This document shows positions 4,681 through 7,021 of a stretch of DNA of 64,000 bases, in pieces. This DNA comes from Escherichia phage vB_EcoM_IME392. The notes beneath the pieces were generated by a model that searched no databases, had not been told where the DNA came from, and worked only from the letters and a program-made list of their open reading frames with translations. Both the position numbers and the translations under genes were made by a program. Numbering within the stretch: the stretch's first letter is position 1; every line of letters begins with the position of its first letter. Location of the stretch: the sequence record MH719082.1, one strand, 5' to 3'.

Positions 4681-4904
4681 AGTTACCTCTATGTTATTTA
4701 TTTTAAACTGGATAGGGACTAATAAAGTAAATAGTAATTAAATACTTATTAATCTTCCTCTTATCTAATGCTAAGGGAAGCGTACTCGAGGAGTACAGAA
4801 GCTTAGCGAAGAGCGGAGTAACCATTTGATTTAAACAGTCACCGTAGAGAGCGAAGGAGTCGCGCCCGCTTGAGGCGGCGCGACCTCCGCTTCACCAATC
4901 CTAC

Positions 4905-5032
4905 CGGATGGACGCCTGCGACCACCCGAGCCTACCCCTGCCTCACTCACTAAAGCCACTTCGGGCTTTACCTCGTTCCGCTACGCGATACGCAGGCAGA
5001 TAGCTACACTAAGTCCCCTGGAGATGGCTAGT
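4905..5032. ncRNA. structured non-coding element, copy A (paralog of 59890-60010)
   Basis: ORF-free; hairpin AAAGCC-ACTTCG-GGCTTT (4952-4969) enclosed by 7-bp helix GCCTGCG(4914-4920)/CGCAGGC(4991-4997); about 70% identical to copy B. Confidence 0.35.
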
Positions 5033-5311
5033 AAGTATCCGTTACCAGACCATGTCCAACCTAACATTGACGAAGCCAGGGACTAGGCACTCCTCGCCAA
5101 TAAGCTACATTAGGATTTATGTCCGTATTTCGAAGATAGGCCGATCGGGGAGACTATGCATTCATCTCTGCTCAACCAGGAAGCACCGATTAGGGTAAAT
5201 ACCCAAACTATCTTCTTAATGTCACTCCTCCCAGACCGCTTCGGGACTTAGCTTAAGTCTTATCCGAATAATCTGGCATCTACGACGGACCGTAGTGTAT
5301 GGAGCGTACTG

Positions 5312-5345
5312 CAATTTAACAGCCTTTTGACTCATCAAAAGAGCG
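5312..5345 (-). promoter_or_regulatory. conserved leftward promoter-like motif, copy 3
   Basis: CAATTTAACAGCCTTTTGACTCATCAAAAGAGCG inside the tRNA island. Confidence 0.4.
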
Positions 5346-5644
5346 TAATTAGGGCCCGATTATTTCACTTAGCTTCCATCCGTTCGGGCCAACACGGATC
5401 GTACATGACGTTACCGTCGTTTCAAGTCACTCGGATTATTAGTTCCCGGTGCTCATATAAAGATGGTGCCACGTAGGGAATCGAACCCTATATCAGGTAA
5501 ACGTCTAGCCGTAGACTGCTGAGTGCCCTCAGCTACCCTATCACTTAACCGAACCATCGGCAAATCTTTCACAGATACTTACACGTGATTTTCTCTGATC
5601 GGATCTGGTGATTCCTCGGAGTCGAACCGAGGAGTGGCATAATA

Positions 5645-5720
5645 TGGTGGTCCATACTGGTTTCGAACCAGTGACCAAGCGATTATGAGTCGCCTGCTCT
5701 CACCACTGAGCTAATGGACC
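5645..5720 (-). tRNA. tRNA-Met (anticodon CAU; could equally be an Ile2-type CAU tRNA)
   Basis: hand-folded cloverleaf on - strand: GGTCCAT/ATGGACC acceptor, D-arm GCTC-AGTGGTGA-GAGC, anticodon loop CTCATAA, T-arm ACTGG-TTCGAAA-CCAGT, encoded CCA. Confidence 0.8.
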
Positions 5721-6189
5721 GAACTAGATTGAGCGATAGGCTATGGAGTACCTTACCATCGGGCGTCTTTCGCTAAATAGCCCATCATGGGCTACCGCAG
5801 GGGCATGACACCTATCGCTCAAATTGGTCGGGATCGTGGCCCACGTCGGAGGATTTGCCAAACTCCCCATTATCATAGCCTAAGCTATCCAGACGGCCGT
5901 AACTACCCTGCTCCGGTACATGCGATAATGGGGACGTATCCAAAGATGTGGAGATCCCGTTAAAATATCTTAAGCTTCTCGCTATGTGTGTCCTACACTC
6001 TACCCTTGCGGGGTACCGGAGGATGAATCCGAACTTCCTGCGACCACACACGGAGGCCCTTGCAGACGTGCTTTATTGCGCTCATCCTGGCATAGCGAGA
6101 ACTTAAGATATCTATTGATGCGCACCAGATAAGTATTTCCCAAGCCATGAACTTAATCTGGGATCTTGACCTATCCAGTGCGACTTATG

Positions 6190-6265
6190 TGGTACTCCCT
6201 ACTGGATTCGAACCAGTGACCGTCGGTTTAGAAGACCGATGCTCTATCCTCTGAGCTAAGGGAGC
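6190..6265 (-). tRNA. tRNA-Arg (anticodon UCU)
   Basis: hand-folded cloverleaf on - strand: GCTCCCT/AGGGAGT acceptor, D-arm GCTC-AGAGGATA-GAGC, anticodon loop CTTCTAA, T-arm ACTGG-TTCGAAT-CCAGT, encoded CCA. Confidence 0.8.
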
Positions 6266-6835
6266 TTAACTTTAGGATGACCTCTTAGCTTACCATCGCG
6301 AAAGCTACATGGAGTGTAGTTAACGTGAACTAAGAGGTCATCATAAAATCAGTTACTGACGAATTATACTTTCCCAACCATCCACATATACTGCGTTGGC
6401 TATGTAAAGAATGCAGAACAAGCCAACGATTAAAGGATTAATCATTGTACTTCTCCATTTAATTAAGTTACCTGCTTACTGTTACAGGGACGCCGTTCGT
6501 CGCGCCAGATTACCAATTGGCGTATTAAGCCAATCTCGCCAACCGCGTAACGCCATTGGCTGGTATCACATAGGCTTGTAGCCCTCAGTCAACCTATCCT
6601 GAGGATGAAGATCAGATACTCTCTAACGGCGGGATTGATAGTCCCAGAGTACGATCTCTTTGCCATTCTCGTATGACCTAGGAGACGACTGCCCTGGTTA
6701 AGGAGACCAGACAGCTGATATGGTTTAGTTTATTTTTAATTTGAGTCCCACTCATACCTTACAGACTCAAGCACTGCAGACCACCATGAAGCCGACTCGT
6801 ACGCTAACAGTCGACACCACGGATCCATGAAACTC

Positions 6836-6880
6836 CAACAATTTAACAGCCTTTCGACTCATCAAAAGAGTGTTAAATTG
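6836..6880 (-). promoter_or_regulatory. conserved leftward promoter-like motif, copy 4 (flanked by inverted repeat)
   Basis: CAATTTAACA-GCCTTTCGACTCATCAAAAGAG-TGTTAAATTG; 10-bp inverted repeat. Confidence 0.4.
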
Positions 6881-7021
6881 TCCGCTCCCTATCACCGAGC
6901 ACTGTGATGATGGGAAAATAGGGAGCGAAGCGATTCCTAAGTTTTATCTCTTCTCTAAGTGATTAACCGTTACATACGATGTACCTTCTCGAAAGAATTA
7001 AGCCGGTATTGGCACTTCAGA

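Follow-up and report, generated by a model that had tools for sequence, protein, structure and literature searches.

The nut sites of phage lambda, the put sites of phage HK022, and riboswitch-like leaders are all leader RNAs that act in cis. From the transfer RNA (tRNA) region of phage T4 come, in addition to tRNAs, RNAC and RNAD (species 1 and 2), which have no known role (PMC3014915), and the RNAs GOLLD and ROOL are often encoded near tRNAs in prophages (PMC5737381). Here, we analyzed a 2.4-kb gene-free stretch (the island) in the Escherichia phage vB_EcoM_IME392 (sequence record MH719082.1), which lies within a 64,000-nucleotide (nt) stretch of that sequence (the window, to which all coordinates refer unless another sequence is named) and whose listed elements are all on the − strand. 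The explanation that we favor, and hold to be probable if not strongly so, is that the island is a stable-RNA region transcribed in two main units from copies of an early promoter-like motif, with a duplicated structured motif of ~140 nt acting in cis. The tRNA cluster is itself ordinary, apart from the likely correction of one tRNA-Met to tRNA-Ile2 and its behavior as an exchangeable cassette, and the interest of the locus lies in two large RNAs of no known family and in the duplicated motif.

The 263-amino-acid (aa) protein encoded next to the island (3889–4680, − strand) matches AXY86097.1 of vB_EcoM_IME392 over 250 residues with 100% identity. This phage and EP_H11, the only close relative in the phage collection (~93% DNA identity to the window), have been grouped as "RP13-like" phages, for which hypermodified thymidine is predicted (PMC12686479; bioRxiv 10.1101/2025.03.26.645540). 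The terminase protein ties the lineage distantly to the Acinetobacter phage Ab1-TPeters (59% aa identity) and the Ralstonia phage RP13. Split β′-like RNA polymerase subunits are encoded by EP_H11 (L013 26582–28096 and 29676–31244, outside the window), one protein carrying Pfam Rpb1 domains 3–5 and the other domains 1–2, and the lineage thus possesses a multisubunit polymerase of its own. Phages combining such a polymerase with hypermodified thymidine have, to our knowledge, barely been studied, and "hypothetical" is the annotation of nearly every gene in this lineage.

Among 5.8 billion proteins, the 263-aa protein falls into a single 90%-identity cluster, and no locus for it was found in IMG/VR. 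Through exact members of this cluster, six further copies of the locus were obtained from ENA and Logan assemblies, and the island was compared across seven relatives, including EP_H11 and the assemblies L019, L021, L025, and L026. Identity to EP_H11 ranges from 88% to 100% along the genome, and conservation in that phage alone is uninformative; we instead used the density of variable sites across the seven relatives. In this comparison the two flanks of the island (7056–6471 and 5468–4681) are constant and its center is variable. The original prediction had described the island as free of open reading frames (ORFs), which is essentially right, the longest being 79 aa and lying partly inside a segment that is absent from several relatives. 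A hidden protein gene was ruled out, with no ORF above 79 aa and the same lack of ORFs in several independent assemblies. The elements that had been listed in the island, namely two cloverleaves, long hairpins with a shared 10-mer, and tRNA-like remnants, are present, each within one base of the position first given.

The sharpest signal of constraint comes from module 2, a structured region on the − strand made up of a 5′ domain (5000–5308) and a 3′ domain (4856–4996). The alignment consensus gives the 5′ domain a multi-branch fold, with an 11-bp long-range helix (5298–5287 with 5018–5006) closing it. Only 9 of its 309 sites (5308–5000) vary among the relatives (2.9%; Fisher p = 3e-12 against third codon positions), a variability indistinguishable from that of first and second codon positions. 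By the same measure, 10.7% of sites vary in the 3′ domain, 14–22% at third codon positions of three neighboring genes, 1–9% at first and second codon positions, and 27% in the spacer at 5450–5346. The stretch 5312–4740 folds with a z-score of −4.45 on the − strand versus −2.0 on the + strand. Nine one-sided changes in module 2 keep their pair through G-U and one breaks it (binomial p = 0.011), and these G-U pairs would be C-A mismatches if read on the opposite strand. Purifying selection outside any ORF and base-pair covariation, the generic marks of a structured non-coding RNA, are both found for the candidate RNAs of the island, in sequences that are few and closely related.

The 3′ domain of module 2 consists of a core (4996–4922), a hairpin H6 (4911–4895), and a GC-rich 13-bp hairpin H7 (4888–4856). 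From the end of module 2 it is 175 nt to the ATG (4680) that opens the gene for the 263-aa protein, and the tail and AU-rich leader between them (4681–4855, − strand) contain no other copy of the promoter-like motif. Self-comparison of the window revealed a second copy of this 3′ domain in locus 2, an ORF-free structured region some 55 kb away (59745–60273, − strand; z = −2.5) between ORFs of 56 and 77 aa, which is the sole other gap of more than 250 nt in the early-gene blocks that lacks a coding-strand ORF of at least 50 aa. Its parts are a core (59978–59901), an H6 (59889–59872), and a GC-rich hairpin (59867–59834). The two cores match over 76 nt with 81.6% identity (to 4996–4922; E = 3e-14), and a covariance model of the core, which scores the locus 2 copy at 95 bits, detects exactly two copies each in the window and EP_H11 and no others. 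This paralogy is the only similarity that we found among island parts and locus 2.

In both copies, the ~140-nt motif runs in the order of core, a 33-nt spacer holding a small hairpin, and a 13-bp GC-rich hairpin. The sequences of the small hairpin in the two copies are CCAUCC-GGUA-GGAU-U-GG and CUCUCC-GGA-GGAG-UUU-AG, while the sequence of the GC-rich hairpin is entirely different between the copies with its stem kept. A structural alignment built by hand pairs 174 of 175 cells, with 14 of the 36 pairs changed on both sides, five of these in helices that are anchored by sequence; RNAalifold recovers helices H2, H3, H4, H6, and H7. Both copies lie directly upstream of a gene (ATG 4680 and ATG 59744, locus 2 ending ~90 nt before the latter), the position in which a cis-regulatory leader would be expected. 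As to the switching terminator that such a leader might carry, a terminator scan found none in the island, and the GC-rich hairpins are not classical terminators because they lack a U tract.

A second large candidate, module 1, is a structured RNA of ~365 nt (6471–6835, − strand) that is present in all relatives reaching this far and would form the 5′ leader of the tRNA unit. Of its 98 predicted pairs, five are changed on both sides in the alignments of relatives, and 98.5% of cells remain paired. Its covariation score of 0.096 compares with 0.059 for shuffles, none of 500 reaching the observed value, and with at most 0.019 when pairing partners are slid. Some 13% of its sites vary among the seven relatives, and a 30-aa ORF at its start is frame-shifted in EP_H11. 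The original prediction had suggested that the island might encode processed stable RNAs beyond its two tRNAs. This is partly true: through covariation and constraint, conserved structured RNA other than tRNA was found, in module 1, module 2, and three domains (i–iii) of the spacer between the tRNAs, and the modules may be processed into stable RNAs.

Four copies of a promoter-like motif divide the island into units. On the − strand the consensus is CCGCTCTTTT-N6-GTCGAAAGGCTGTTAAAnTGT, and the window holds 12 copies (core starts at 2876, 3862, 5327, 6854, 7037, 7095, 7700, 8724, 55696, 56771, 59490, and 60887), all of them on the − strand and inside − strand gene blocks, with several placed 20–40 nt upstream of a ribosome-binding site and ATG. 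EP_H11 carries 23 copies, all of which follow the gene strand and are absent from the late block; the majority are placed 30–90 nt upstream of annotated starts, the exceptions including three copies inside its island. The copies at the island, all on the − strand, are P_a (5309–5345), in which 2 of 37 sites vary; P_b (6838–6881), a 44-nt near-palindrome with 20-nt arms that are 85% complementary; P_c (7020–7056); and P_d (7078–7112), which reads CCGCTCTTTT-N6-GTCCAAAGGCTGTTAAAGTG and overlaps the 3′ end of a 180-aa gene whose product matches a PHROG annotated as a DNA-binding protein. P_c and P_d form a tandem duplication in the window, 58 nt apart, P_d being the window-specific duplicate, and EP_H11 has a single copy. 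A related motif, AAAAGCTGTTTAAAGTGT, is carried by the Ab1-TPeters phage.

From its position and orientation, the motif would be the promoter of the phage's early genes, probably read by the phage-encoded multisubunit RNA polymerase. Leftward (− strand) transcripts would begin a few nt downstream of GCTGTTAAAnTG, near 7015, 6835, and 5308. The palindrome at P_b could be bidirectional, bind a protein, or fold as a hairpin. In the island, neither sigma-70-type promoters nor intrinsic terminators were found beyond chance expectation. The unit behind P_b would comprise module 1, a long hairpin (B), tRNA-Arg(UCU), spacer domains i–iii, a second long hairpin (A), tRNA-Ile2(CAU), and two decayed tRNA remnants; the unit behind P_a would lead from module 2 into the mRNA of the 263-aa gene, whose product resembles a DXD-motif glycosyltransferase and which lacks a separate promoter motif. 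A short third unit would lie behind P_c (7015–6880). Hairpins A and B most plausibly serve host RNase III, E, or P as signals for processing or stability. The ~140-nt motif would then act in cis on the transcript carrying it, by attenuation or antitermination, processing, or stabilization, and cleavage may also release the module 2 5′ domain and module 1 as stable RNAs that accumulate on their own.

Searches for known families gave tRNAs only. This holds for Rfam at gathering thresholds over the whole 64 kb, and at E ≤ 10 over 4400–7400 and 59650–60350 nothing meaningful was matched beyond tRNAs, with neither GOLLD nor ROOL among the hits. Weak Rfam matches to Plastid-ycf2, microRNA, and small nucleolar RNA families were discarded as tRNA antisense or chance, and there was no Rfam match to transfer-messenger RNA (tmRNA), RNase P RNA, group I or II introns, or 6S RNA. 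ARAGORN at default settings likewise found no tmRNA, permuted forms included; a "tmRNAp" call arose only at thresholds of ≤85% and overlapped a real tRNA. A host origin was also rejected, as a blastn comparison of module 2 with 5426 E. coli genomes gave no match. The promoter 17-mer hit only unrelated contigs in IMG/VR, and neither a module 2 24-mer nor the core-motif pattern had a match in IMG/VR, JGI metagenomes, or GTDB genomes. Profiles of the modules (nhmmer) and the core covariance model found nothing in the Ab1-TPeters phage or in stretches of the RP13 and Carin-5 phages.

Other phages match the island at its tRNAs only. The Ab1-TPeters phage has an island of its own (L027 ~17570–20170), in which tRNA-Arg(UCU) (18399–18475) is followed by tRNA(CAU) (18862–18936) in the same order as in the window. 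Four copies of the related motif are present there too, as are small ORFs; a long hairpin precedes tRNA-Arg, and a non-coding tail (19790–20170) is richer in GC. Within the tail, AGGGGAGUGCUCGGGAUGG shows a resemblance to part of the core motif; this match, to AGGGG..GCUCGGG (E = 1.6, not significant), was the only hint of a more distant relative of the modules.

Set beside the described systems, the island resembles the T4 tRNA region in that co-oriented tRNA genes are joined there by RNAs, in the island predicted ones, that are not tRNAs and have no assigned role (PMC3014915). As in T4, the tRNAs fit the codon usage of the phage. The island RNAs differ from RNAC and RNAD in being larger (~365 nt and ~450–600 nt) and in sharing no sequence with T4, and each module is preceded by a separate copy of a phage-specific motif, with one module running into a protein-coding gene. 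With GOLLD and ROOL, the modules have in common that they are large and multi-branched and that they adjoin tRNAs, as those phage and prophage RNAs often do (PMC5737381); they differ in hosts, sizes, and consensus features, show no covariance match at E ≤ 10, and are confined here to one narrow lineage.

The ~140-nt motif can be compared with the nut and put sites, being likewise a conserved structured element that occurs in two copies, in early transcripts, upstream of genes, and that is followed by a strong hairpin. Unlike those sites and riboswitches, it matches no known sequence or model, its hairpins have no U tracts, and it is probably transcribed by the phage's own multisubunit polymerase. 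A bolder proposal, to which we give somewhat less than even credence, is that the locus represents at least two undescribed classes of large structured RNA (the ~310-nt domain and the ~140-nt two-copy motif) made from promoters of the phage's own polymerase, with the motif as a new RNA-based attenuation or antitermination element for a phage multisubunit polymerase and the large domains as free functional RNAs.

Several observations count against the explanation that we favor, or limit how far it can be pressed. No homologue of the modules was found beyond one lineage in the Ab1-TPeters phage, the RP13 and Carin-5 stretches, IMG/VR, JGI metagenomes, or GTDB genomes, and the family is therefore not yet definable more widely. 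The seven relatives share at least 90% identity and form about two haplotype groups, so that substitutions are few and non-independent, and each consensus structure was tested on the very sequences that had yielded it. The nine double changes in the GC-rich hairpin, which was aligned by structure, do not count as independent evidence, and the absence of a U tract behind it speaks against classical termination. The promoter-like motif could instead be a transcription-factor site or an RNA hairpin. Finally, L026 has its two tRNAs adjacent and without leader hairpins, and such hairpins are therefore not required for retention of the tRNA genes.

An alternative that we regard as rather unlikely is that the modules are free, trans-acting stable RNAs cut from precursors, like T4 RNAC and RNAD (PMC3014915) or GOLLD and ROOL (PMC5737381), with possible roles as a scaffold, a decoy against host defense or nucleases, a partner of the phage polymerase, or a factor in DNA modification or packaging. 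Each module does have its own promoter-like motif and no ORF, the constraint over 309 nt exceeds what a simple leader would need, the multi-branch fold is ornate, and the adjoining tRNAs are themselves cut out by processing enzymes. Module 2, however, runs straight into a gene with no other promoter motif between, the copy of the motif at locus 2 lies inside an operon without a promoter motif directly upstream, and neither GOLLD, ROOL, nor any other Rfam family was matched at E ≤ 10.

It is improbable, in our judgment, that only the two tRNAs are functional and the remainder is debris or spacer from a decaying tRNA cluster, its hairpins being incidental or serving as processing sites or terminators. 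Such debris should evolve at a near-neutral rate, whereas the module 2 5′ domain and spacer domain iii vary five to seven times less than third codon positions, compensatory changes are present, the modules bear no resemblance to tRNAs, and a diverged second copy of the 3′ domain has been kept 55 kb away. What this alternative does explain is the stretch at 5640–5464, with clear tRNA remnants that are dispensable in L019 and L026, and it also fits the turnover of tRNA content between relatives, the folding of several of the elements first cited no better than shuffles, and the Carin-5 phage, which has the same tRNAs without a large ORF-free island. Very improbable is a function of the conserved blocks as DNA, such as a replication origin or packaging or protein-binding sites near the terminase genes. 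High conservation by itself would fit DNA as well as RNA, there are palindromes such as P_b, and the small terminase gene lies ~1.8 kb from the island; yet the variable helix positions alternate G-U with A-U or G-C, which is compatible only with − strand RNA, the fold z-score is strand-asymmetric, a promoter-like motif stands directly upstream of each block, and the ~140-nt motif recurs at locus 2, a long way from the terminase genes. The promoter-like consensus, the non-coding units, and the constrained RNAs offer concrete handles on early transcription and RNA processing in phages with hypermodified thymidine and a polymerase of their own, and the question of why large RNAs adjoin tRNAs, as with GOLLD, ROOL, and T4 RNAC and RNAD, can be asked here in an E. 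coli system with good genetics.

Turning to the tRNAs themselves, both cloverleaves of the original prediction were accepted by tRNA prediction and by the Rfam covariance model. ARAGORN at default reports just these two tRNAs in the 64 kb, both on the − strand and both with an encoded CCA end: tRNA-Arg(UCU) (6190–6265), which reads AGA and scores 71.3 bits (6265–6193) with the Rfam tRNA model (RF00005, gathering score 29 bits), and a tRNA with a CAU anticodon (5645–5720), which scores 70.3 bits (5720–5648). The pair recurs in the Ab1-TPeters and Carin-5 phages. The CAU tRNA had been labeled tRNA-Met, which is probably not correct; ARAGORN assigns the Met label by anticodon alone, and in every one of the 5426 E. 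coli genomes its best matches carry a tRNA-Ile annotation, with 88% identity over all 76 nt.

Read from the sequence, the CAU tRNA has G1-C72, C4-G69, and C5-G68 pairs. The pairs C4-G69 and C5-G68 are identity determinants of TilS. The G1-C72 pair excludes an initiator tRNA, and together with the similarity to tRNA-Ile and the two TilS determinants it makes tRNA-Ile2, predicted to be lysidine-modified and to read AUA, the most likely identity, correcting what is likely a mis-annotation. The CAU anticodon is shared with the tRNA-Ile2 of E. coli (ileX/ileY, with CAU modified to lysidine); unlike the host tRNA, this one is phage-encoded, and its modification by TilS and charging by isoleucyl-tRNA synthetase (IleRS) are putative. 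Both AGA and AUA are rare codons in E. coli. In the late genes of the phage, AGA accounts for 18.5% of Arg codons (8.3 per 1000 codons) and AUA for 16% of Ile codons (9.6 per 1000 codons). The earlier idea that the tRNA-Arg serves a rare codon is in keeping with this usage, taken together with general knowledge of codon rarity in E. coli, and extends to both tRNAs; it is supported that tRNA-Arg(UCU) and tRNA-Ile2 supply two codons that the phage uses far more than E. coli does.

Each tRNA is preceded by a long hairpin that contains CGAUGGUAAG and ends 10 nt upstream of the tRNA. Hairpin B (6270–6348, − strand; z = −5.7 versus shuffles) precedes tRNA-Arg, and its 13-bp stem, reported previously, was recovered with arms at 6276–6288 and 6330–6342, a shift of one base. 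Hairpin A (5729–5822, − strand; z = −3.45 versus shuffles) precedes the CAU tRNA, and its predicted 10-bp stem GAGCGATAGG/CCTATCGCTC (5731–5740 with 5811–5820) is real and extends to 13 bp. The core CTTACCATCG that the two hairpins had been said to share occurs exactly twice in the window, at 5752 and 6289, once in each hairpin, where ~0.1 exact matches would be expected by chance by our own arithmetic, and the order of CTTACCATCG and ATGGAGT is swapped between hairpins A and B. The 3′ arm of hairpin B has a different sequence in EP_H11 and the hairpin still forms, and in the stem of hairpin A a U-A pair is replaced, with compensation, by C-G in EP_H11 and L019; the arm replacement and the compensatory change suggest a structured tRNA leader under selection.

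The 365-nt spacer between the two tRNAs folds as a whole into three long hairpin domains (z = −3.7). Domains i (6181–6121) and ii (6115–5963, with a closing stem of ~24 bp), which together occupy 5963–6183 on the − strand, are confined to the window, L021, and L025. A conserved structured part of the spacer, domain iii (5830–5958, − strand), is present in most relatives reaching this far, including the minimal island of L019, and was not detected in L026. Across the seven relatives, 4.3% of its sites vary (measured over 5969–5830; p = 1e-5 versus third codon positions).

Among the seven relatives, the tRNA part of the island behaves as a swappable cassette of one to four tRNAs, the tRNA set being exchanged by recombination between close relatives. 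The center of the island holds Arg and CAU tRNAs in the window, L021, and L025; Gly(UCC), an odd 85-nt tRNA, Arg, and CAU in EP_H11; CAU only in L019, whose island is 1.7 kb; and, in L026, a different Arg directly abutting CAU, along with a 210-aa ORF. This ORF (L026 691–1323), which lies in the tRNA cassette, weakly matches a restriction endonuclease PHROG (E = 5e-5) and may encode a homing nuclease that drives cassette exchange. The 85-nt tRNA-like gene of EP_H11 (L001 5662–5746, − strand) has an enlarged anticodon region, scores 52 bits with the Rfam tRNA model, and is missed by ARAGORN; it may be a disrupted or intron-bearing tRNA.

Downstream of the CAU tRNA, the stretch 5640–5464 looks like two decayed tRNA 3′ parts. 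One (5606–5640, − strand; z = −1.5) has a T-arm hairpin at 5613–5633, running to a CCA at 5606, and after the hairpin comes AAUCACCA. The other (5464–5543, − strand; z = −0.8) is a degenerate tRNA-like cloverleaf with a CCA end and no usable anticodon loop, recognized by ARAGORN at the 85% threshold only; it retains a perfect T arm and five of seven acceptor pairs (two mismatches), with a shrunken anticodon loop and a 2-nt "anticodon". Neither remnant has an Rfam tRNA match at E ≤ 10, and they do not qualify as tRNAs. The whole stretch is missing from L019 and L026, in which the CAU tRNA abuts the same downstream sequence (CACCA|TCTTTATATG), and we therefore read these elements as decayed tRNAs in a cassette that is turning over. 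The suggestion that parts of the island are decayed tRNA genes is, for this stretch, partly true. The T-arm hairpin, the tRNA-like element, and a 7-bp GC stem were all correctly located by the original prediction; as folds, they are no better than shuffles. The 7-bp stem (5353–5390, − strand; z = +0.5, not significant) lies just upstream of P_a, shows a compensatory G-C to A-U change in L021, and possibly marks the end of the tRNA unit.

A few minor features complete the island. Within the variable segment, a 30-aa hydrophobic ORF (MINPLIVGLFCILYIANAVYVDGWESIIRQ; 6353–6445, − strand) with a GGAG ribosome-binding site is found only in the window, L021, and L025, and may encode a membrane micropeptide (6445–6353). 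The short non-coding unit downstream of P_c (6880–7015, − strand) has a fold z-score of −1.3, which is not significant, and 15% of its sites vary among the relatives; it holds a 13-bp hairpin at 6926–6884. At 6990–6970 (− strand) lies a ribosome-binding-site-like GAAGG followed by ATG-TAA, a minimal "start-stop" ORF, whose core (AGAAGG, spacer, ATGTAA) is nearly invariant across all relatives. Far from the island, ~14.6 kb of the late-gene block of the window (31636–46236) has no DNA match in EP_H11 and is presumably a swapped host-range module.

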